From the IMG/VR virus record IMGVR_UViG_3300037603_000018, positions 1-33,733 of that record: a DNA stretch of 33,733 nucleotides; one strand, 5' to 3'. Source of the DNA: a virus. Lineage: Duplodnaviria > Caudoviricetes. The notes beneath the pieces are model-generated. The model saw only the letters and a list, made by a program, of their open reading frames with translations, did no database searches and was not told where the DNA came from. Of the stretch, positions 11,428 through 25,699 are shown piece after piece; the first letter of the stretch is position 1, and every line of letters begins with the position of its first letter. The translations under genes and the position numbers were made by a program.

Positions 11428-11623
11428 CGGTACCTTCTTTGCTATTTTGACGTTTCGATTCGTAATAAAGCACCCATCTTAGTTGTTCCCATTTGTCCCA
11501 AAACAATTGATCGGGTAGCTCTTCAGGATTCGGTATTTTGAAGTGATAGGAGAGCATGGCCGTTACCTTTCGGATAAAGTCATGGCCTCCCTCTGTAGAG
11601 ATAGGGAGGCTTAAACCTCCCCC
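11417..11623 (-). CDS. -1 frame extension of the tail assembly chaperone (gpGT-like T segment)
   Basis: -1 frame is open through the chaperone stop: ..GGLSLPISTEGGHDFIRKVTAMLSYHFKIPNPEELPDQLFWDKWEQLRWVLYYESKRQNSKEGTVEL*; it fills the gap to the next gene. Confidence 0.7.
   Translation of the reverse strand, partial: GGGLSLPISTEGGHDFIRKVTAMLSYHFKIPNPEELPDQLFWDKWEQLRWVLYYESKRQNSKEGTVEL
11585..11623 (-). other. Programmed -1 frameshift signal: G_GGG_GAG, 6-nt spacer, hairpin GCCTCCC/GGGAGGC
   Basis: Minus strand reads ATG GGG GAG GTT TAA gcctccctatctctacagagggaggc. Confidence 0.6.
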
Positions 11624-12042
11624 ATTTCTGCATCCATAAACTTGATGATTCCGTTAGCCTGGATAGCAGCCGTGTCTGCGATATCATCATCAGCCATCAG
11701 GCGTTCATCTCCTCCCAGCCAACAGTTGTTCCTTAGGAATTCTCCACATTCCAAAATCTTATCTTTGGCGTACATGCTCAGGGCAGTAGCCTTATGGTTT
11801 CGGTTGGGTTTCCTCAGGTAGCCTGTGGCCACATCACCTTCCTTGACAGTGACCTTGATCACGTGCACAGTACCATGCTTTTTCTTCCATTCTGCGATTT
11901 GCTCAGCAGAAACAATCCCATTTTTCAGGGCTTCAGTTTTTTCCTTTTTCATGATTTTCTTGGTCAGTTGATTGATTGTTTCATGCGGGGAAAAAGGGAT
12001 TCCCCTTTCCCTGCATTTGCTTCTCACCTCTTCACGGCTCAT
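11611..12042 (-). CDS. Tail assembly chaperone (gpG-like)
   Basis: EQIAEWKKKHG.VH.I, GYLRKP.R and NCWLGGDE motifs; follows the tail tube gene. Confidence 0.75.
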   Translation of the reverse strand: MSREEVRSKCRERGIPFSPHETINQLTKKIMKKEKTEALKNGIVSAEQIAEWKKKHGTVHVIKVTVKEGDVATGYLRKPNRNHKATALSMYAKDKILECGEFLRNNCWLGGDERLMADDDIADTAAIQANGIIKFMDAEMGEV

Positions 12043-14748: not shown

Positions 14749-15669
14749 TTAGGGTTCTACTCCTGATACCAATGCACCAAATCCATGTTCCTGCGTTTTG
14801 TCACACAGCCCGTAAGTGTGCGTCCTGAACTCTGTCTGAGGATCAGCACTCCTGGTATCTTGCTCCATTGGCTGAAGGAGAAGCTTCACCCTTTCGATGT
14901 GATATACCGTTTGCCCGGGGGTGAAGAAAATACTTGCATTTCTGTCAGTACCAGCTGGTGTAGCTCCTTGAGCCTTCAATTCGCCCGAAGCATCATACTT
15001 AACTGAATGATTGTTCTCAAAGAACTTCAGTTTGTAGAACCGCTTCAGTTCACCTGTGTTCTTATCGATCTCGATATCACGATAGTTGTTAGTACTGCCC
15101 CTGTCTTCGATCAAATCTGCCCGGTGTTCTGGACACAATACCATTAACAGCTGCTCTGTAGGGTCCAGATTCAGGGTTTCAAGCTGCACGTAGAACTTGA
15201 TCAAATCAGCATAGGTAAGTTTCAACCTACCATTCACAGCAGCTCCGGAAGTTCTTATTACAGGCATCTTTCCCGCTACATCCTCCGCAGGTGCAAGTTT
15301 CTGCATCACATAGTTTCTTACCCCCAGTTTGAAGCCCTTGGTATGAGCCACACGAATAGCGTTTTCCTTGTCATAGGCCATATACCTAAGGTCTATGTCA
15401 GTGACGTTGGTAAGCTCGGTATCCATTTTGTCCCATTCAACAAGGCTTTTCTTTTCATCCAATTTTCTAGGAGTGAAAGCTGTTGACTTGTTGATGTAGA
15501 AAGCCACATCCTCAATCAGTTTATTGAAGCGGATACCATCCTTATCAATTGCTTGCTCCGGTGCTTTCTTTAGAAAGGCAATGAAGTCATCTTTGTAATT
15601 CCTGAAGTCAGTCAGGAGTTGGGGTGCCACATATTGTTGCAGCCACGCACCATCAGTTAATTCTGCCAT
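14749..15669 (-). CDS. Major capsid protein
   Basis: 306 aa immediately downstream of the head maturation protease; translationally coupled (TAATG). Confidence 0.8.
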   Translation of the reverse strand: MAELTDGAWLQQYVAPQLLTDFRNYKDDFIAFLKKAPEQAIDKDGIRFNKLIEDVAFYINKSTAFTPRKLDEKKSLVEWDKMDTELTNVTDIDLRYMAYDKENAIRVAHTKGFKLGVRNYVMQKLAPAEDVAGKMPVIRTSGAAVNGRLKLTYADLIKFYVQLETLNLDPTEQLLMVLCPEHRADLIEDRGSTNNYRDIEIDKNTGELKRFYKLKFFENNHSVKYDASGELKAQGATPAGTDRNASIFFTPGQTVYHIERVKLLLQPMEQDTRSADPQTEFRTHTYGLCDKTQEHGFGALVSGVEP

Positions 15670-16838
15670 TAATGGTTAAATTTTGCGTTAAACAATTTTT
15701 CAAATGCCTCAGGTGCTTCATCCTGTAGTCTGGCCAATCCTTTCGGATCAGTTTCTTGCCATTTCTCAAAGCTCCAGTCACCACGGCCTTTCAAGATTTC
15801 GTGGTCTCCTTCATTACCGGGATCTTGCCTTTCTCTTTTCGTCATCCCATTCAGGTCAGGCTTGCCGGGAATCCTGGATAAGGTTCTAATCACCATGTTA
15901 GGGTTGGCTTTGAAATCAGCCTCCCATTCCGCCCTTTCCGTAGGCTTGAATTTTCCTGCTTGCTGGGCAGGATCAAGCGTGGCCTTCATGAGCTCATTGG
16001 TCATTCTGTCCACTTCCTTTTTATACCTGTCAGAATTCACGGCCTTATCGACCAGGGCTTGCAGCTGATTAGCAAAGTCCCCATCGGCACTGGAGGCGGT
16101 AAGTTCGCCTGCCATGCCCGCAGCCATGAGTATGGCCATAATCGCTTCTTTTTTCATAGCACTAGTTTGGTTTGTATCGTTAGATGGGCCGGACTCCTTT
16201 GATGTAGGCCCTTCAAATAGTTTAAAAATATCTTCAGCAGTTCGGTTGCTCATATCTTCAGGATCCACTGCCCTTTTCTTAACTGGCTCTATGACTTCAT
16301 CCACTATGCCTAGATTAGCGCATTTATCAGAGTCAAGCCATGTTTCCTGTCCGGGTTTTACCCAGCCCTCTATTTCCTCCTCACTGGCAGTTGTTCGTTC
16401 CTTATAGATTTTCTTGATTCGAGCCACACAGCCTTCCATTTGTTCTAGGCTCGACTTTACTGCCTGCCTATTGCCATACACACCCATTTCTACATCATGT
16501 GCCATGAAGAATGCATTCTTAGTAGTTTTAATGGTGTCACCACCTAGTAGGATTATAGAACCCATGGAAGCAGCCAAGCCTTCATTGATCGTAGTGATCT
16601 TACAATCACTTGAGCGCATTAGATCATAGATGGCAAGACCCTCATATACCGAACCACCACCACAATGAAGCCTCACCGTCAAGTTGGTCTTGCTTGTGAT
16701 CAGGTCTCGGAATGCTTGCTGAAAACCAGCATAGTCCACGGCTTCCCATTTTCCGATATACCCGTATATTTTGATTTCCGCATCTTGCTGCGTAGCGTTG
16801 GTAACCTCGTATTGAAAGCCCTGTTTAAGTCTTGCCAT
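15669..16838 (-). CDS. ClpP-like prohead maturation protease fused to a scaffold domain
   Basis: IYGYIG, HCGGGSVYEG, GLAASMGS (catalytic Ser), FMAHD (His), ETWL..GIVDEV. ATG at 16838 preferred because the track's TTG start lies inside the promoter box. Confidence 0.88.
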   Translation of the reverse strand: MARLKQGFQYEVTNATQQDAEIKIYGYIGKWEAVDYAGFQQAFRDLITSKTNLTVRLHCGGGSVYEGLAIYDLMRSSDCKITTINEGLAASMGSIILLGGDTIKTTKNAFFMAHDVEMGVYGNRQAVKSSLEQMEGCVARIKKIYKERTTASEEEIEGWVKPGQETWLDSDKCANLGIVDEVIEPVKKRAVDPEDMSNRTAEDIFKLFEGPTSKESGPSNDTNQTSAMKKEAIMAILMAAGMAGELTASSADGDFANQLQALVDKAVNSDRYKKEVDRMTNELMKATLDPAQQAGKFKPTERAEWEADFKANPNMVIRTLSRIPGKPDLNGMTKRERQDPGNEGDHEILKGRGDWSFEKWQETDPKGLARLQDEAPEAFEKLFNAKFNH

Positions 16839-16868
16839 CCTTGATCCGTTTTCCTGTTTCGTTGGATG

Positions 16869-16876
16869 CAAAGATG
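16869..16876 (-). promoter_or_regulatory. Leftward late promoter -7 box CATCTTTG (variant of TAnnTTTG)
   Basis: Identical to the rightward box; 31 nt from the nearest operator. Confidence 0.6.
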
Positions 16877-17474: not shown

Positions 17475-19033
17475 TAGAGCAAATCAAAAAAAGAGACTAC
17501 CAGCAGTGGTTAGACTTTTGTACGCAAGTACAAAACAGCACTTCAGTCAAGCTCAACGAATCCAAACAAGACCAGAAAGCCCGGATTAAAGCCTGCTTAA
17601 AGGACTATAACCTATTCTTTAAGACCTACCTGTCTATTTACGCAGACCATGATTGCGCCCCTTTTCATATCAAGCTGGCAAAGGCCGTACTCAAAGACCC
17701 TAACTTCTTTGGTGTAGCTGAGTGGCCACGAGAGCATGCCAAGTCAGTACACATGAATATTGGCATTCCCATGTTCCTGATTGCTCATGGTGAGCTAACA
17801 GGGATGATACTTATGGGGAAAAATAACGATGATGCCAGTAACCTACTTGCCGATGTTCAGGCCCAACTAATGAGTAACGACCTCTTTGCAAATGATTTTG
17901 GCAAGCAGTACAGCTTTGGGAGTTGGGAAGAGGGTGATTTCACTACCAAGCAAGGTATTCGATTCCTTGCTGTTGGTCGTAACCAATCTCCCAGAGGAGC
18001 CCGAAAAAACGAAAAGCGTCCCAACTACGCCTCCATTGATGATATCGATGATGATGAATTGGTAGAAAACCCAAAGCGAGTCAAAAAGGTGGTTAAAAAT
18101 ATCCTGGGAGCCCTGTACTTTGCGCTCTCCATCAAGGGAGCTCGGGTAGTCATGGGAGGTAACCGGATTCATAATAATTCAGTCCTGGCAAACATTGTAG
18201 GTGATACCAAGCCGGGCAAAAAGAAACGCAAAGGCCTGTGGCATGACAAGCGTGTAGCCCTTACTGATATCAAATATAATGCTGAAGGCGAGATGATCAG
18301 TGGAAAACCTGTCTGGAACCGCTACACCTTTGAGGAACTAAAGCGCAAGATCATTAAAGCCGGGCATGTCCACAGTCAGCGTGAGTTCTTTCACAAGACC
18401 GAGATCGAAGGAAGCATTTTCAAAAACCGATACTTCAGGTTTGCCAAGATTCCAAACCTACGACTTATGCAGGTCATCATTGGTTATTTTGACCCAAGTT
18501 TTGAAAACAATCCCACCTCTGATTTTAAGTCTGCTCCGGTCTGGGCCCTTAGAGGACAAAAACGGTATTGCCTGGCTCGATTCTGCCGAAGATGCGAAAT
18601 AGAAGACGCCTTCGAATGGATGGTCCATTTTGAAAAGAAGTTACCTCTTGGGGTAGGTATGATTTGGTACGTAGAGAAACAATTCTATAACCGACCTATC
18701 ATCAACGCCAAAGCCAGAGTGGAGCGCAAAACAAAGCACCGCCTTAATGTCATTACTGATGAAAGAATCAAACCGGGCAAGTACACCCGAATAGTAAGAA
18801 TGGAGCCGGAGTACTCCTCAGGAAATGTCATTTACAATTTAGATGAAATTGAAGACACTGACATGATTGAAGGCAACAACCAGGTGAAGGGAATAGAACC
18901 AGGTTACAATTCTCCGGACGATGCCCCCGATAGTGATGAAGGCGCATGGTATTACCTCGACCAGCACATTACCGAAGACAATCCACCTCCGGCAGCAGGC
19001 AAAAGGGAGATTGACGAAACCAGACGTTACTAA
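17471..19033 (+). CDS. terL: Terminase large subunit
   Basis: Walker A variant WPREHAKS; RP..ASIDDIDD Walker B; nuclease motifs YFDPS and DDAPD. Confidence 0.9.
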   Translation: MIEQIKKRDYQQWLDFCTQVQNSTSVKLNESKQDQKARIKACLKDYNLFFKTYLSIYADHDCAPFHIKLAKAVLKDPNFFGVAEWPREHAKSVHMNIGIPMFLIAHGELTGMILMGKNNDDASNLLADVQAQLMSNDLFANDFGKQYSFGSWEEGDFTTKQGIRFLAVGRNQSPRGARKNEKRPNYASIDDIDDDELVENPKRVKKVVKNILGALYFALSIKGARVVMGGNRIHNNSVLANIVGDTKPGKKKRKGLWHDKRVALTDIKYNAEGEMISGKPVWNRYTFEELKRKIIKAGHVHSQREFFHKTEIEGSIFKNRYFRFAKIPNLRLMQVIIGYFDPSFENNPTSDFKSAPVWALRGQKRYCLARFCRRCEIEDAFEWMVHFEKKLPLGVGMIWYVEKQFYNRPIINAKARVERKTKHRLNVITDERIKPGKYTRIVRMEPEYSSGNVIYNLDEIEDTDMIEGNNQVKGIEPGYNSPDDAPDSDEGAWYYLDQHITEDNPPPAAGKREIDETRRY

Positions 19034-19043
19034 ATATTTCTAT

Positions 19044-19490
19044 ATGGCTTTTCTAAATATTAATGATTACAGCGTTCAAATCCGATCCTGGGTTACCAAT
19101 ATCATCACTGATGAAAATGAAGACATCCGTATCAAGTCGGAACTGATGGCGCAGGGTGAAATGGAATCTTACCTGCGGACAAGGTATGACACCACTTTGA
19201 TTTTCGATCCTGCCCTTTACGATGAAGACCAGACCCTAGACGAAAGGAACCAGACCATAGTCATGTACCTTATCGACATGGCCGTCTATCACCTTCATGC
19301 CAATATCTCCCCTGAGAGTGTTCCGGACATCAGGGAAACTAGGTACAAGGCAGCCATCAACTGGCTCAAGGATGTGAGTAAAGGCAACATTAATCCAAAC
19401 CTCCCTGAAAAGACCTCCGAAGACGGAGAAGCTGAATTAAACTCCCTTTTCAATGGTGGTAGCAATGATCCGGTTACGGATAGATACTAA
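19044..19490 (+). CDS. Mu gp36-like head-tail adaptor (DUF1320)
   Basis: SYLRTRYD, IDMAVYHL, RY..AI.WL..V..G...P.LP; ATG at 19044. Confidence 0.85.
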   Translation: MAFLNINDYSVQIRSWVTNIITDENEDIRIKSELMAQGEMESYLRTRYDTTLIFDPALYDEDQTLDERNQTIVMYLIDMAVYHLHANISPESVPDIRETRYKAAINWLKDVSKGNINPNLPEKTSEDGEAELNSLFNGGSNDPVTDRY

Positions 19491-19523
19491 AGAACGTTTA
19501 AGACCTATTTAAGAGCGCACACA

Positions 19524-22472
19524 ATGGACTTTAATAAAACAATCAAGGGATTATGGCCCCTTACGCTTTCGAAGCCTCTAAAGCCCGAAAAAGAAGAGTA
19601 TGACAATCTGGTAAAACAGATGGTTGCTATCATCAAACACCAGCGTTCCTTATACCGAAAGGAAATAGCCGACTGGAAGAAAGCCAGAGCCTGGGCACTC
19701 GATCCTGAGCAACCAAGGCGCAAGATGCTAATCGACCTTTACGAAGACATCATGACCGATGCCTTTATCTGGGGCCGATGGGATACACGGAGGCTTCGAA
19801 TCAGTAACAAGGGAATTGCCATCATCAATAAGAACGAGGAGATCGATAAGGACAAAACCGATATGCTCGAAAAGATGTGGTTCAATAAGTTCATCAAAGA
19901 TGCACTGGATTCAAAGGCTTTCGGTTACACTTTATTATATGTAGACCAGCTAAACCCTGATGGCACCATCAAAGCCATGAGCCATGTATACCGTGACCAC
20001 ATCGTACCGGAAACTAAAGAGATCCTGAAATTCTCCACTGACATATCAGGCACCCGGTTTGATGAGCCTCCGGTATCGGACTGGTGTGTATGGATAGACT
20101 CAGGTAATCTTGGTCTCTTGGATATGGCTGCACCACTTTGGATATTCAAAAAACACTCCTGGCAAAACTGGGATGAGTTCGAAGAGAAATTCGGCCTACC
20201 TATCAGGACGGTAAAAACTGCCCAGACTGATCCACGAGTACTTCGGGAAATTGACTCGTTCCTAAAAGACCTCGGTACCTCAGCCTGGGGAAGGTTCCCG
20301 GCCAATACCGAAATCGATATCAAAGAATCAAGCTCCAGAGACTCTTATAATGTATTCAACGAAAAGCGAAAGGCATGTAATGAAGAACTGGCCACGCTCA
20401 TTGATGGTCATTTCGAAACAGCCAAAGACACTGGCTCACGGGCAAAGGCAGGATCGATTATTGAAAGTACCCAAAAACTCATCACTCTCGATGATGAAAC
20501 TTTCGTCAAGTACCTCATGAACGAAAAGGTATTGCCTTTCCTTCGTGAAATGGGTTACCCGTTCTCTGAAGATGACAGATTCATCTGGAATGAAAACGAA
20601 CAGCAGTCACCTAAAGACCGCCTCGACATATTCAAAGGAGTGAAAGCCCTGGGTTACAAAGTCAAGAAAGAACAGATCGAAACCGAATTGGATGTGGAGA
20701 TAGAAGCAGAAATTTCACCACCGACACCACCTCCAGGAAGCCCTAAAGATTTCATCACGGGTTTTAAGTTGCCCCATGCCTCATGTGGGCATGGGGCCGT
20801 CCCGGACACGTACCGGATGATATTCGATATCAGCAATGCCACAATTGACCCCGATGAGGAAATGTTACTAAAGCAGCTGTACGCTTCCGGAGGCAATACC
20901 GACTGGTCATACAATGAGTTCAAGAAATCCCACACCAAGCTAATTGACGGGCTGAAGGGTTACGGGCAGATTGATTTTGATTTCGAATCTTCAGACCACC
21001 TCACAGTGCAAATGATGCGAGCCAATATCCACCGATTTGGTACAGACAAGACCCAAGCGCAATTATTCCAACTCAACCAGATCATCAAAAACCCAGAGGT
21101 CGACACCTTCGGAAAGTTTAGAGAACGGTCATTAAAGGTCTTCCCTAATTACAATGAACGCTGGCTGGAGACTGAATTTGATCAGGTACAAGCCACTTCA
21201 CAGATGGCAGCCAAGCAAAAGGAAATGATGGAAAACCAAGACATCGCTCCTTACTGGAGGCTTGTAGCTGTACTGGATGAGGGTACCACACTTATCTGTA
21301 GAAGCCTTGACGATAAGGTGTTTAGAAAGGACGATGCCGATGCCTGGCGTTTCCTTCCTCCCAATCATTGGCGATGCAGGTCAGATGCTGAAGATGTACT
21401 CGAGGATTACGATGGGGAAGTCTCCACCATGGCCGATGCCGTAGGTGCAGACCCGGACGGCTTTGAGCGCATGCAGCGTAGCGGACATGATGTCAACTGG
21501 GGAGATGAGAAGGCGGTTTTTTCCAAAACCCAAGGCTACCTGTCCAAATTTGACCTGGGAGAGATCGACACTTTCAATGCCTTTGACTTCCGAACCTTTG
21601 ACCTGAAGAGCCGGGCCAGCATGACCAATCTACCGGACATGCCAGCCATTGGGAGAGTCAGAAGGTTTACGGATCGATCAGGAGACTACCGTTTCCCCGA
21701 TCCCGAAGGCATGCCTGTATGGATGGAAAGAGACCAGGTAAGCGGGCCATTGCTCAGGGCTGCGGACGATGCCATCGGTAATGCAGATGAAGTATATTGG
21801 TTTCGGGCAGGTGACGCTGAGGTCAAAAGTTACTTCAGGCATTACAAGGAAGGTACTGTCCATACCCTTGTGGATTACAATGCTACCCAAAAAGCCACCG
21901 TCCAAAGCATGGAACTGATCAGCGACCCGGACAATGCCAGGCGTGGACTATTGGTATATAGCCCCGTGGAAAAGATCGCTTATAATAAGGCCAAATACAA
22001 TTCACTACCCCCTGAGGAAATCAAAGTATCCTTTAATGAGAAAACAGGGGCATTTATTAGCCGTCATATTGACCATGGTAAACATGAACTCCCAAAGAAC
22101 CTGTATACTGCAAATAAGCTTCAGGAGAGCGGGTATTCTTCTCAGCTTCTACCCAATCCAGATAATATAAAGTCTGCCGATGCATTGGTAAATGGTGTGA
22201 AGTGGGAATTTAAATTACTCACTGAGTATAAGAATTTAAGTGGAAGGGTTCGGGATTCTATAAGAGAGGCTTCCAGACAGAGCCAAAACATACTACTCCA
22301 TATCAACAATCAATATACCATAAAAGAAATTGTTGAAGGGCTGAACACAGCCGTAAGAAGGGATAAAAAGAAACGAATCCATTTCGTAGCCATTGCATTC
22401 AATGACAATCGAGTGTTTATCTTTTCCAGAAAGCAAATAGAAACGGGGGAATTCAGAAGGATATTAAACTAA
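19524..22472 (+). CDS. Portal (DUF935-like)-MuF minor head-PBECR-like-CdiA-CT/PD-(D/E)xK-like nuclease fusion, 982 aa
   Basis: Portal LGLL..A..W.FK..W..F.E.FG.P.R; Pro-rich linker; MuF WLETEF..PYW..V.D..PPNHWRCRS; ADEVYW..Y...Y..RRGLLVY; SADALVNGVKWEFK..Q. Confidence 0.85.
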   Translation: MDFNKTIKGLWPLTLSKPLKPEKEEYDNLVKQMVAIIKHQRSLYRKEIADWKKARAWALDPEQPRRKMLIDLYEDIMTDAFIWGRWDTRRLRISNKGIAIINKNEEIDKDKTDMLEKMWFNKFIKDALDSKAFGYTLLYVDQLNPDGTIKAMSHVYRDHIVPETKEILKFSTDISGTRFDEPPVSDWCVWIDSGNLGLLDMAAPLWIFKKHSWQNWDEFEEKFGLPIRTVKTAQTDPRVLREIDSFLKDLGTSAWGRFPANTEIDIKESSSRDSYNVFNEKRKACNEELATLIDGHFETAKDTGSRAKAGSIIESTQKLITLDDETFVKYLMNEKVLPFLREMGYPFSEDDRFIWNENEQQSPKDRLDIFKGVKALGYKVKKEQIETELDVEIEAEISPPTPPPGSPKDFITGFKLPHASCGHGAVPDTYRMIFDISNATIDPDEEMLLKQLYASGGNTDWSYNEFKKSHTKLIDGLKGYGQIDFDFESSDHLTVQMMRANIHRFGTDKTQAQLFQLNQIIKNPEVDTFGKFRERSLKVFPNYNERWLETEFDQVQATSQMAAKQKEMMENQDIAPYWRLVAVLDEGTTLICRSLDDKVFRKDDADAWRFLPPNHWRCRSDAEDVLEDYDGEVSTMADAVGADPDGFERMQRSGHDVNWGDEKAVFSKTQGYLSKFDLGEIDTFNAFDFRTFDLKSRASMTNLPDMPAIGRVRRFTDRSGDYRFPDPEGMPVWMERDQVSGPLLRAADDAIGNADEVYWFRAGDAEVKSYFRHYKEGTVHTLVDYNATQKATVQSMELISDPDNARRGLLVYSPVEKIAYNKAKYNSLPPEEIKVSFNEKTGAFISRHIDHGKHELPKNLYTANKLQESGYSSQLLPNPDNIKSADALVNGVKWEFKLLTEYKNLSGRVRDSIREASRQSQNILLHINNQYTIKEIVEGLNTAVRRDKKKRIHFVAIAFNDNRVFIFSRKQIETGEFRRILN
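20759..20797 (+). other. Programmed -1 frameshift cassette at the portal/MuF junction, leading to an immediate stop
   Basis: In-frame G_GGT_TTT (20759-20765); spacer AAGTT; perfect 10-bp stem GCCCCATGCC/GGCATGGGGC; -1 frame reads GGG TTT TAA. Confidence 0.75.
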
Positions 22473-22545
22473 AAAAATAAAGGAGGATAGCCAACAAGTG
22501 GCTAGAGCCTTCCTTTCTTGAGGGGGTCATCCTCAGACAACCATT
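22471..22545 (-). ncRNA. Candidate ~70-nt small RNA convergent with the toxin-domain gene
   Basis: Upstream TATATTTG box; hairpin UGAGG-AUGACCC-CCUCA; then terminator-like hairpin AAAGGAAGG..UAGCCA/UGGCUA..CCUCCUUU and a U tract. Confidence 0.5.
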
Positions 22546-22546
22546 A

Positions 22547-22577
22547 CAAATATAGCGCAAATCCATTAATTAAACAA
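22547..22577 (-). promoter_or_regulatory. Bacteroidota promoter TTG-N20-TATATTTG, antisense to the rightward late operon
   Basis: -7 box at 22547-22554; TTG at 22575-22577. Confidence 0.55.
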
Positions 22578-22578
22578 T

Positions 22579-24597
22579 ATGAAGGGATTAGATTATGCAT
22601 TAGGGCTTATTGACAAAGGTTTCATGGCAGGCATGAAGCAGGCCATTGGGTTGACCAAAACCCTCGACCATACCGTCAACAAGGTAAACCGACATGTAAG
22701 CGGTACTGGCAAAGCTGCCAAGTCTGGATTCAATGGCCTGTCCCAGACCATTAAAAAGACTAGTGAAGACATGAACGGCTTCACCTCGAAAGCCAAGAAA
22801 GGCATTGGAGGCATGAATGCCAGCTTGGAAAGCACCAAGAGAAAGCTTATAGATACAGGGGCCTCAGGCAGTAGAAGTATGAATGGACTGAATGGTACCA
22901 TCCGTACGGTTAGAAATTCCCTCGTTGGTCTTTTTGCTGTGGCTCAGATTAGCGCATTCACAGGCAGTGTTAAGACGGCCACCACCACTTTCGAAGGATT
23001 AGAGAATACCATTCGCTTTGCCTCAGGTAAGGAAGCCAATACCAATATGACTTTCCTTGATGATACTATCAAGCGACTGAATATGGATATGCAAGCCAGT
23101 TACAAGGGTTTCCAAACCATCTCCGGGGCCATGAAAGGAACAGCCCTGGAGGGGCAAGCCACAAGGGATATCTTCGAAGGCATAGCCACAGCCGGTACCA
23201 TCATGAACTTGAAAGCAGACCAAATGGAAGGAGCTTTATTAGCCGTCTCCCAAATGGCATCAAAAGGTAAGGTACAGGCTGAAGAACTCAGGGGACAACT
23301 TGGCGAAAGGTTACCGGGAGCCTTCAATATTGCAGCCAAATCCATGGGAGTTACCCAGGAGGAATTGAATAACATGCTGGACAAAGGACAAGTTTATGCA
23401 GAAGATTTCCTTCCTAAGTTTGCCAAAGAACTTAAGAATACTTTTCAAGATGGCCTTCCGGCAGCTGCCAATTCCATGCAGGCAGCCACCAACAAGCAAA
23501 ACAACGCTCTTACCAGCCTAAAACGAACACTGGGTGAATCCATGCGCCCGGCATTTATGATGTTTAGTGAAAACATGGCTGGTTTTTATAACTGGCTCAA
23601 TGGGGTCATTCCTTTACTTGAACCTGTGAGGAAGGCCATGGTAAACTTAGGTCAGGCCTTTATGCCAGTCATTACTGCCATCATGGGTATAGCAGCTGCC
23701 AGCGGTGGAGCCAGTGGTATAATAGACCAAATGGCTGGTGTGATCAATACCGCAGCTACGATCGTAGAAGTGCTGTCATATGGCATGGGCTTCCTCATAG
23801 AGAATTACAAAATTGTGATCCCGGCCATAGCCGGATACATCGCCATGCAAAAGCTTATGGCCTTGGTCCAGATGGCAGCAGCTGCCAAGACTACAGTGCT
23901 GGCCATAGCCACACAAGGGCTTAACGCTGCCTTTGCTGCTAACCCCATAGGGCTTACCATCTTGGCATTGGCTGCGCTTAGCGGAGCGGTGATTTATGCA
24001 TACAATAAAGTGTCCTGGTTTCGTGGGGGGATAATGGCTGCATGGGAAGTGATCAAGGGATTTGGTAATATCATCAAGGATTATGTCATTACCAGATTTC
24101 AAGAGCTACTCTCAGGGATCACAGGAATAGGTAAATCCCTCTACCACCTCTTTACCGGAGACTGGGCAAAAGCATGGGAGGCAGGCAAGAAAGCTGCAAA
24201 TGGCCTTATGGGTGGCAATGCCAAAAAGCAACTAATTCAGGATGCCCTGGACGTAGGAAAAAAAGCTGCCAACGCTTATAAGAAGGGAGCCAGTGAGGCT
24301 AGCATGGCCACCACTGCTGACGATTCAGCCAATGCCCTGGTGAGCAACGGCAGCCCAAACAGTAACAATATCACTGCACCCGGAGGAAGCCCCACAGGAA
24401 ATGGCCCTAGCACTTCTGTAGCTGCTGGCTCTGGCACCGGAGGCAATAGGGAGATTACTTTCAATATTCAATCGTTCGTCAAAGAGCTAACGATCCATAC
24501 CACCAACCTAAAGGAAAACCCTCAGGAGGTAAAAGCAATTATTGAACGCTTGTTTTTCGATATCCTGCGAGACCTTGAAACCAGAGTAGACCTATGA
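22579..24597 (+). CDS. Tail tape measure protein
   Basis: SQMASKGKVQAEELRGQLGERLPGA tape-measure N-terminal motif; Ala-rich hydrophobic segments; ANPIG and TGDW..AW repeats. Confidence 0.92.
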   Translation: MKGLDYALGLIDKGFMAGMKQAIGLTKTLDHTVNKVNRHVSGTGKAAKSGFNGLSQTIKKTSEDMNGFTSKAKKGIGGMNASLESTKRKLIDTGASGSRSMNGLNGTIRTVRNSLVGLFAVAQISAFTGSVKTATTTFEGLENTIRFASGKEANTNMTFLDDTIKRLNMDMQASYKGFQTISGAMKGTALEGQATRDIFEGIATAGTIMNLKADQMEGALLAVSQMASKGKVQAEELRGQLGERLPGAFNIAAKSMGVTQEELNNMLDKGQVYAEDFLPKFAKELKNTFQDGLPAAANSMQAATNKQNNALTSLKRTLGESMRPAFMMFSENMAGFYNWLNGVIPLLEPVRKAMVNLGQAFMPVITAIMGIAAASGGASGIIDQMAGVINTAATIVEVLSYGMGFLIENYKIVIPAIAGYIAMQKLMALVQMAAAAKTTVLAIATQGLNAAFAANPIGLTILALAALSGAVIYAYNKVSWFRGGIMAAWEVIKGFGNIIKDYVITRFQELLSGITGIGKSLYHLFTGDWAKAWEAGKKAANGLMGGNAKKQLIQDALDVGKKAANAYKKGASEASMATTADDSANALVSNGSPNSNNITAPGGSPTGNGPSTSVAAGSGTGGNREITFNIQSFVKELTIHTTNLKENPQEVKAIIERLFFDILRDLETRVDL

Positions 24598-25148
24598 TCA
24601 ACGACAATGCACCGGAATTTCTTCGCATAGCCAATGCCTACCAGAAGGCAAAGAAGGTGATCCCTCGCAAGATGGCCATCTATGCGGTTAACCATTTCAA
24701 AAGAAACTTTAGGCTCCAGGGATTTCAGGATGGCAGCCTAAAGAAATGGCCTGCAAGGGCTGGCAAGATACGTAAGGGAAACAATATACTTATCAAGTCA
24801 GGCAGGCTCAGGAGAGGCGTGAAGATACTTCGAACTTCAGGGAGCCGAACGGTAATAGGCGTGGGTGCAGAGATACCTTACGCACGCATTCACAATGAAG
24901 GCGGTAAGATCAAGATCACCGCCAAGATGCGCAGGTACTTCTTTGCCATGTATTACAGCATGGCAGAAAGGGACGAGGCGGGCAAAGTAATCTCCGAAAG
25001 CGATGAGGCCAAATTTTGGAAGATCATGGCCCTTACCAGGAAAACACATATCGATGTACCCAAGAGGCAATTCATCGGCCCCAGTATAGGACTTGAAAAA
25101 GGCCTCGACAAACTTGTCATTAAAGAACTTAAAATGATCATCCAATGA
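24594..25148 (+). CDS. Phage virion morphogenesis / tail completion protein (Mu gpG-like)
   Basis: KW..R, L..SGRLR, YARIHNEGG and P.RQFIG motifs. Confidence 0.85.
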   Translation: MINDNAPEFLRIANAYQKAKKVIPRKMAIYAVNHFKRNFRLQGFQDGSLKKWPARAGKIRKGNNILIKSGRLRRGVKILRTSGSRTVIGVGAEIPYARIHNEGGKIKITAKMRRYFFAMYYSMAERDEAGKVISESDEAKFWKIMALTRKTHIDVPKRQFIGPSIGLEKGLDKLVIKELKMIIQ

Positions 25149-25699
25149 GCGTAAAAGGAACCATTTATTTAGAAATATCCACCTACCTAAAACAACAAAT
25201 ACCCGAACTAAAGTGGGTAGACAAAGACCGTGGCCAGCTGGAGAACATCTCCAATTTCGTATTTCCACGGCCTGCCATATTCCTGTCCTTTATGCGTACG
25301 GAGTACGGCACCATTGGCAACAATAGCCAAAAAGGTGAAGGAGCAGTGAGGCTTAGAATAGCCTATGAAAACTATGCCGACAGCTTTACCGGATCAATCA
25401 ACCAGGACAAAGCCCTGGCATTCTTTGAATTCAATGAGAAAGTTTACGAAACCCTCCAGGGCTTGAGCGGTACCCACTTTTCCCCACTGGACCGGACAGC
25501 CGATGAGGATGATTTGGAGCATACCAATATCATAGTGACCATTCAAGAATACGCCTGCAACTTCGTGGATGATACAGCTGTCAAGAAAAAACAATTCATC
25601 CTTACCGATCCCGATGTAGAAGTAACGCACGTAAAAAAAGGGACGCTCCCCGATAGAACGCCCCTTGATGATGGTACCTTTGTAATAGCTGATTTCTGA
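25145..25699 (+). CDS. Mu gp37-like tail terminator/neck protein
   Basis: LKWVD.D.GQL..P.PA.F motif; follows the gpG-like gene. Confidence 0.65.
   Translation: MSVKGTIYLEISTYLKQQIPELKWVDKDRGQLENISNFVFPRPAIFLSFMRTEYGTIGNNSQKGEGAVRLRIAYENYADSFTGSINQDKALAFFEFNEKVYETLQGLSGTHFSPLDRTADEDDLEHTNIIVTIQEYACNFVDDTAVKKKQFILTDPDVEVTHVKKGTLPDRTPLDDGTFVIADF

Follow-up and report, generated by a model that had tools for sequence, protein, structure and literature searches.

The portal gene carries a predicted -1 frameshift site

The window, the whole stretch of viral DNA analyzed here (33,733 nucleotides (nt) of IMG/VR record IMGVR_UViG_3300037603_000018), contains a single open reading frame (ORF) in which a Mu-type portal is fused to a MuF domain and a predicted nuclease. 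Where the portal domain ends, this frame holds the following elements, which together have the form of a programmed -1 ribosomal frameshift site.

19524..22472, plus strand: fused ORF encoding portal, linker, MuF domain, PBECR2-like domain and CdiA_C-like nuclease (982 amino acids (aa), 113.5 kDa)
20759..20765, plus strand: slippery heptamer G_GGT_TTT, codons 413-414 of the 982-aa ORF, in frame in the sequence
20765..20767, plus strand: TAA stop of the -1 frame immediately past the heptamer, the -1 reading being GGG TTT TAA
20766..20770, plus strand: spacer AAGTT of 5 nt
20771..20797, plus strand: predicted stimulatory stem-loop of 10 Watson-Crick pairs plus one G-U pair (RNAfold, 11 bp)

The first-pass annotation, made from the sequence alone, had described an in-frame G_GGT_TTT with an immediate -1 TAA, a 5-nt spacer and a 10-bp stem, and every element proved exact, base for base; positions 20771-20780 are the exact reverse complement of 20788-20797. 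Its placement of the site just past the portal domain was also borne out, since the site falls in a low-confidence linker (residues 392-442) that follows a complete Mu-like portal fold. The predicted shifted product has 414 aa, a mass of 48.2 kDa and the C-terminus DFITGF. When the 54 in-frame X_XXY_YYZ heptamers found in the 31 ORFs of the window were ranked by the strength of the downstream helix, this site came first. The 72 nt past the heptamer had a folding z of -4.3 relative to synonymous recodings, with 0 of 100 recodings equally stable, and the 5-nt spacer lies within the 4-10 nt distance rule for a 3' RNA structure given in the accessible part of PMC4066793. An Rfam scan of positions 19000-23000 returned nothing credible. 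The decisive evidence for a recoding signal is its conservation in relatives, not the site in the window alone.

The signal is conserved throughout the window's clade of fused genes

Among loci L001-L161 we collected the fused loci of the window's clade (A1), 49 including duplicates and copies of the window, and dereplicated them at 95% to 23 representatives, the window counted, with identities of 47-95%; most are Flavobacteriia prophages. All 49 loci carried A_AAT_TTT or G_GGT_TTT and a -1 stop at the junction. In the representatives, the heptamer and the immediate -1 stop were present in 23/23 (19 with AAATTTTAA, 3 with GGGTTTTAA and 1 with AAATTTTGA), the stop being TAA in 22 and TGA in 1. 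Elsewhere in the same genes, the other Asn-Phe or Gly-Phe (NF/GF) dipeptides (n=108) formed a heptamer in 8 cases and also a stop in 1. In a later metagenome set, from which two weak 239-aa matches were left out, 4/4 full fused loci fitted the pattern, one of them being probably the same phage as L004.

Conservation at this site acts on nucleotides. Among the 12 representatives below 80% identity, synonymous sites were saturated and only 1 of 138 invariant amino-acid columns was also codon-invariant, namely the slip-site Phe, which was TTT in 12/12; the remaining 13 invariant Phe columns used mixed codons. Under each gene's own codon usage, the joint probability for the site was 10^-13.4, the 12 representatives being treated as independent. 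The first triplet of the heptamer switched between AAA and GGG as a block across a codon boundary, with 2 changes in A1 and 8 in the mirror clade described below, and a mixed first triplet occurred in 0 of the 74 representatives of the two clades. The third base of the codon preceding the slip tracked the triplet across six different amino acids.

The downstream structure was similarly retained. A helix of at least 8 bp started 5 nt past the heptamer in 20/23 representatives, and in 3 the stem was inverted, with GGGG on the 5' arm, so that the encoded residues changed and the pairing was kept. The 72 nt downstream of the heptamer belonged to the most stable tenth of the gene in 23/23 representatives, and in 17/23 at least 95 of 100 synonymous recodings folded less well. 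For covariation we aligned the stems of 17 sequences; this set includes L009, a near-duplicate of a representative; excluded from it were 3 representatives with an inverted stem, 2 with a branched stem and two near-duplicates of L013. In this alignment 94.1% of cells were paired (36-51% in slid controls), and none of 500 shuffles reached the 21 double-change cells observed. An alignment of homologues had been proposed by the first-pass annotation as a check, and its outcome, a heptamer with a -1 stop in every representative and compensatory changes in the aligned stems, upheld the prediction.

At four loci (L019, L042, L132 and L425) upstream indels break the portal frame and leave the junction signal intact; these indels are either assembly errors or marks of decayed prophages.

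Distant relatives carry the mirror layout

In relatives of ~33% identity the layout is the mirror image: the portal ORF ends one codon past the heptamer and MuF is read in the -1 frame, where its conserved N-terminal motif is mostly not preceded by a start codon. In all 51 mirror representatives a canonical heptamer lay within the open -1 frame of MuF, 12 nt upstream of the end of the portal stop codon (A_AAA_AAG in 25, G_GGA_AAG in 24 and A_AAA_AAA in 2); six -1-frame representatives (L039, L132, L156-L158 and L160) are left out of this count. The helix that follows in the mirror clade encloses about 60 nt of loop; double changes were seen at 6 of its 14 pairs. The tail of the predicted shifted product in A1 matches the portal tail of the mirror clade in length (median 24 versus 22 residues). 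Split loci in which a shift would create the fusion, which the first-pass annotation had suggested looking for, exist in these 51 representatives and in Hankyphage.

Before dereplication, the 91 mirror loci comprised 76 with canonical heptamers, 14 with C_CCC_CAG and 1 broken upstream; the corresponding numbers in the metagenome set (n=45) were 34, 10 and 1. The C_CCC_CAG form sits at the portal stop in L078, L142 and related Capnocytophaga loci, where the stem and the open -1 frame are retained, and it may be a weaker, single-tRNA site.

The mirror layout also occurs with other heptamers in Hankyphage p00 (T_TTT_TTC), Peternella_1, fF4, TCUEAP3, BS-TP1 and the unannotated MT836506. In Hankyphage p00 (L154:5840-5910) and in L162, T_TTT_TTC and a hairpin lie 48 nt upstream of the end of the portal stop codon, and the -1 frame leads into MuF; the two GenBank records of Hankyphage give MuF different start codons. 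Separate portal and MuF genes, each with its own ATG, are found in lotta8-1, FPSV-S1 and Pasteurella phage AFS-2018a. In the accessible part of PMC12135933 (S6 Table), virion mass spectrometry of Hankyphage gave 20 peptides for the portal and 3 for MuF, and MuF was recovered, as expected of a fusion, from the 250-85 kDa slice, which also contained small proteins such as Gam and the head-tail adaptor.

At one mirror-type locus (L057:4637-5980) MuF ends in an ADP-ribosyltransferase domain (PF01129), so that other C-terminal domains would likewise be made as portal extensions.

A second truncating clade and the spread of the signal

A second group of portals fused in frame to MuF, that of Porphyromonas phage 010a (A2), had a heptamer and a stem at 69/69 scorable loci, 3 of the 72 loci fetched being too short to show MuF. 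The heptamer was T_TTT_TTC in 67 and C_CCT_TTT in 2; the spacer measured 5-6 nt, the hairpin was G-C-rich and the -1 frame closed after 17-36 codons. Quick portal trees, from which the phylogeny is taken, placed A1 as sister to signal-less stand-alone portals (L018, L039, L040 and L115) and A2 as sister to TCUEAP3. A single clade uniting A1 and A2 was rejected (approximately unbiased test, p 8.6e-5; the group was named after the first tree had been seen). Hankyphage and A2 have the same type of heptamer and hairpin with MuF in opposite frames, from which we infer that the share of fusion product can flip from f to 1-f. Such a flip suggests that the shift rate is intermediate or that the ring can accommodate widely varying shares.

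To gauge spread, we used an even draw of 401 genomes of the phylum of G001, of which 53 had PF06074; the 64 matches, less G001 and 5 fragments, left 58 loci. The mirror layout was present at 13 of these 58, 7 of them on runs of 9-10 A, one locus (L325) was fused, and the rest had separate genes or no MuF detected nearby. As a control, we examined portal relatives of the Pasteurella phage: their MuF frames varied, and a heptamer of any kind lay in the last 20 codons at only 1 of 39 distinct separate-gene junctions.

Three further observations concern these junctions. At L325 (G082:C18), a distant fused portal-MuF gene of 766 codons, T_TTT_TTT is followed directly by a -1 stop, and a long helix starts about 5 nt later; the predicted structure there is weak (-14.9 kcal/mol over 90 nt), and the locus is possibly a third truncating lineage. 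Mirror-type junctions at L351 and L354-L359 lie on 9-10 A runs with inconsistent stems, and polymerase slippage is an alternative there. At L155, L154, L158 and the A2 loci, a recurring amphipathic-looking stretch (for example RRLRDFF or WLKRFF) ends at the slip site.

A frameshift model for two portal forms

Judged by sequence comparison, the recoding signal is real and under selection. We consider it probable that programmed -1 frameshifting at this site yields a 414-aa portal from slipped ribosomes and the 982-aa fusion from unslipped ones, and that both forms probably enter one ring. At the stem, ribosomes holding tRNA-Gly and tRNA-Phe on GGU UUU would pause; in a tandem -1 slip the two tRNAs would re-pair on GGG UUU and UAA would be met at once. 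Termination would then release a complete portal of 48.2 kDa, and ribosomes that did not slip would continue to the 113.5-kDa portal-MuF-nuclease fusion, the shift rate setting the supply ratio of plain to MuF-bearing subunits. The relatives with the mirror layout would reach the same two products inversely, through an in-frame stop and a MuF in the -1 frame. By analogy with portal biology, the two forms would co-assemble. The model has good support in the observed sequence, nucleotide conservation, covariation, mirror layout and domain boundaries, from which we infer the slip, its rate and the co-assembly.

Several results weigh against this model. Taken alone, the 102-nt fold was only modestly better than dinucleotide shuffles (z -1.63; 14/200). 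Two of five covariation measures fell within shuffles (193 and 46 of 500), related sequences can beat shuffles, and a test on independent pairs had only 5 pairs (p 0.0625). At the 5% level 6/23 A1 representatives folded no better than synonymous recodings, in 3/23 the ungapped helix at the 5-nt position was only 4-5 bp long, and an upstream stimulator resembling a Shine-Dalgarno (SD) sequence (GGAG, GAGG, AGGA or GGGG, 5-20 nt upstream) was absent from 23/23. The signal is also dispensable, because the nearest outside relatives (L018, L039, L040 and L115) have stand-alone portals that lack it, and one mirror lineage (Capnocytophaga) uses the non-canonical C_CCC_CAG. Furthermore, G_GG.U_UU.U lies outside H_HH.U_UU.Y, the top class in E. 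coli according to the accessible part of PMC4066793, which calls R_RR.U_UU.Y motifs shifty exceptions. Finally, since the fusion is the unshifted product, 1-2 MuF copies per ring would need about 85-90% shifting.

That copy number is the one given for SPP1 gp7, which binds the portal at 1-2 copies per capsid (PMC5576092, accessible part). For comparison, the best heptamer in E. coli reporters reached 54% (PMC4066793, same part), and the in vitro figure for dnaX, which has an SD-like element, is about 80% (PMC6787027, accessible part). Because the required rate exceeds the E. coli maximum and an SD-like element is absent, the number of MuF modules in the window phage may exceed the 1-2 of SPP1, unless short subunits are preferred during assembly or the linker is cleaved. 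To leave the head, a nuclease tethered in this way would need such a cleavage. The C-terminus of the portal faces the capsid interior.

A different reading accepts the shift and holds that it is weak or regulatory, trimming fusion output or pausing ribosomes, so that the short portal is a minor product without influence on the ring, which consists mostly of full-length fusions that the ClpP-like prohead protease may later trim. The unfavourable heptamer class and the missing SD-like stimulator fit this reading, as do the weak structure of the fused gene L325, the disordered and exposed linker of the model and the ClpP-like head protease encoded at 15669-16871. We nevertheless think it unlikely, since the signal is strictly kept in two separate fused clades and since mirror MuF genes, mostly without a start before the N-terminal motif, need the shift. 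That the junction is kept for its protein sequence, either an N/G-F-x-x-P-H motif or a protease site, with the heptamer and hairpin as by-products, is very improbable: F414 is invariant and a P-H plus Cys/Gly motif recurs after it, but invariance at the codon level is confined to the slip-site Phe, the joint probability given above is low, the preceding third base follows the triplet whatever the amino acid, and stem inversion alters residues and retains pairing.

We give hardly any credence to recoding by polymerase slippage, or by a -2 or +1 shift, in place of a ribosomal -1 slip. Runs of A are a known substrate of polymerase slippage, about 8 or more A/T being needed, and seven mirror loci of the phylum sample have runs of 9-10 A; the longest homopolymer at the site in the window's clade is T4, the geometry there is that of a tandem slip with a fixed spacer, and in the mirror loci it is the -1 frame that encodes MuF. 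On the Riemerella prophage stretch, 0 reads were obtained from four raw RNA runs, a result with no bearing on expression or slippage. It is just as implausible that the hairpin is a terminator, a processing site or an element of internal initiation that uncouples MuF from the portal, with the heptamer incidental. The hairpin is strong and sits at a domain boundary, and ATG codons lie 17 and 32 codons downstream in the window; yet no terminator-like match was found at the site on either strand, an ATG occurs within the next 50 codons in only 5/23 representatives and at unrelated positions, and covariation of the heptamer would be left unexplained. On these grounds we rejected a terminator, an internal start, a protein-motif artefact and polymerase slippage.

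Domains of the fusion and genomic context

The remaining features of the fused ORF are as follows.

19731..20690, plus strand: Mu-type portal domain, residues 70-389 (PF06074 positions 1-334 of 336, Pfam E 3.7e-56)
20712..20758, plus strand: Pro-rich linker ahead of the shift site (seen in the sequence; predicted local distance difference test score (pLDDT) <50 at residues 392-442)
20850..21383, plus strand: MuF / SPP1 gp7-like domain (PF04233 at residues 554-620; first helix at residue 443)
21687..21959, plus strand: probable PBECR2-like domain, residues about 722-812 (modelled as a folded alpha/beta unit)
22050..22469, plus strand: CdiA_C-like PD-(D/E)xK nuclease domain, predicted toxin (PF18451, 45.6 bits against a cut-off of 26.6)

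The portal part of the structure model (about residues 42-395) matched the portals of JBD30 (Z 18.4, root-mean-square deviation (rmsd) 9.7, 288 residues aligned) and Mu (Z 17.7, rmsd 9.0, 278 aligned). Its last helix spans residues 382-389, residues 392-442 are unstructured and the first MuF helix begins at residue 443. Membership of the MuF family is indicated by matches to PF04233 and TIGR01641 (40.2 bits against 39.65), both of which exceed their cut-offs, and by the encoding of the domain next to the portal. In the PBECR2-like region the window protein itself had no Pfam match; of the 15 clade members scanned, 8 matched PF18810, and in 1 of these the match exceeded the cut-off. A fold search with the whole model gave no match to the MuF or PBECR2-like parts, neither of which was searched on its own.

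The Pfam match to CdiA_C covers residues 883-962, and model residues 843-969 matched the fold of CdiA-CT 4g6v_A (Z 10.6, rmsd 3.3, 119 aligned), while a sequence search of the PDB returned no match for this domain. Its Asp and (D/E)xK columns are kept in 14/14 aligned tails; of the 22 scorable clade representatives, 14 have the domain and 8 lack it. In those 14 the gene is not followed by an immunity ORF: the next plus-strand ORF of at least 40 codons, shorter ORFs not being excluded, is that of the tape measure, 78-116 nt away. The label of toxin given by the first-pass annotation is a prediction from the nuclease domain (PF18451 and the 4g6v fold match).

On its plus strand the 33.7-kb record encodes terminase, gp36-like adaptor, portal and tape measure; the genes for the ClpP-like protease, capsid and sheath lie on the minus strand. 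The tape measure gene directly follows the portal fusion (window 19524-25699) in the head operon, opposite in strand to the sheath and capsid genes, an order of portal fusion and tape measure common to the clade and phage fF4. The host of the window phage is likely a flavobacterium, because the named relatives nearest to it, with 56-67% identity in the portal, are prophages found in Riemerella, Chryseobacterium, Flavobacterium, Apibacter, Moheibacter, Leeuwenhoekiella, Aquimarina and Spongiimicrobium.

Other candidate RNA elements in the window

Behind the nuclease domain, on the minus strand at 22471-22554, lies a candidate antisense small RNA that tracks the nuclease domain in the window's clade. 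The element comprises the box TATATTTG at 22554-22547 (minus strand), which we take to be the Bacteroidota -7 promoter box, and the predicted RNA at 22471-22546, with a hairpin with covarying pairs (5/6) and then a hairpin with a U-run. The box was present in 14/14 clade representatives with the PD-(D/E)xK domain and 0/8 without it; in mirror loci it was found in 10/12 with the domain and 17/36 without a domain match, and short MuFs lacked it. Rfam gave no credible match over 22440-22600. The candidate could possibly be an RNA antitoxin that replaces an immunity protein.

A probable tail assembly chaperone frameshift site lies on the minus strand at 11585-11623, at the end of ORF 11611-12042, and consists of G_GGG_GAG, one codon, a stop and an 8-bp hairpin. 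Its geometry is the same as that of the mirror portal sites, its -1 frame is open for at least 65 codons and its heptamer is of the non-canonical X_XXX_XAG form, as is the C_CCC_CAG portal variant. The ORF is labelled a probable tail assembly chaperone from its position, not from a family match.

Comparison with known systems

The short and full-length dnaX products are subunits of one complex. As described in the accessible parts of PMC6787027 and PMC4066793, E. coli dnaX (tau/gamma) shares with the window a heptamer with a 3' stem-loop, an early stop and a short form beside a full-length multi-domain one; the window differs in that the gene encodes a portal, the heptamer is A_AAT_TTT or G_GGT_TTT rather than A_AAA_AAG, no SD-like element lies upstream and the stop directly follows the heptamer. 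The window signal works like that of dnaX but, with a different heptamer and no SD-like stimulator, is not a member of that system. The mirror-clade heptamer G_GGA_AAG is also that of the lambda G/GT site. In lambda-type tail chaperones (PMC5009743, accessible part) a -1 shift in a morphogenesis gene likewise fixes the ratio of a short to a C-terminally extended form, but lambda G and GT are absent from the virion and their shift lengthens the protein, whereas the window's products are portals and predicted virion parts and the shift truncates. Being a Mu-type portal gene, the window gene is not a G/GT tail assembly chaperone. T7/T3 gp10, Lactobacillus phage A2 and Listeria A118, A500 and PSA (same source) place two forms of one structural subunit in the particle, as proposed here; those capsid and tail cases add immunoglobulin-like or small extensions, whereas the window concerns the portal.

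MuF polymorphic toxins (Jamet 2017, PMC5576092, accessible part; Bxa, PMC11699363; Apk2, PMC10083569) also combine MuF1 and a variable C-terminal toxin-like domain beside the portal. Unlike these toxins and SPP1 gp7, the window MuF is linked covalently to the portal, and its gene has no immunity ORF behind it. The first-pass annotation had held the mechanism to be undescribed for portals, and in keeping with this, searches of open-access text found no portal frameshift. The word "frameshift" is absent from the main texts of PMC5576092, PMC11699363, PMC10083569 and PMC12135933; in the accessible parts of PMC10367356 and PMC8008677 it refers to spanins and to a reverse transcriptase, respectively. 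"Portal" is absent from the 300,000 of 449,034 characters of PMC5009743 that were searched and from the main text of PMC3711429. Frameshifting of the -1 type is known in phage structural genes, and the predicted portal case was not found in the open-access text searched.

Implications

Portals are treated as rings of identical subunits. Tentatively, and with somewhat less than even confidence, we suggest that many Bacteroidota phages, Hankyphage included, may have mixed portal dodecamers tuned by recoding, in which one -1 signal would set the number of MuF-nuclease subunits, its polarity having changed at least twice, from extending to truncating or the reverse, while the signal stayed, and in which an antisense small RNA would check the nuclease in place of an immunity protein. 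How MuF enters the virion is treated as an open question in the accessible text of MuF-toxin papers, PMC5576092 among them. If the conserved frameshift is true, the portal joins the recoded structural genes of phages, and MuF would be loaded simply, by covalent attachment to a set share of portal subunits. Mirror-type MuF genes would then have been annotated with wrong starts, a point on which the two Hankyphage records differ, and the stoichiometry of MuF would be testable with point mutants in the cultured phages Hankyphage, fF4, Peternella_1 and TCUEAP3.

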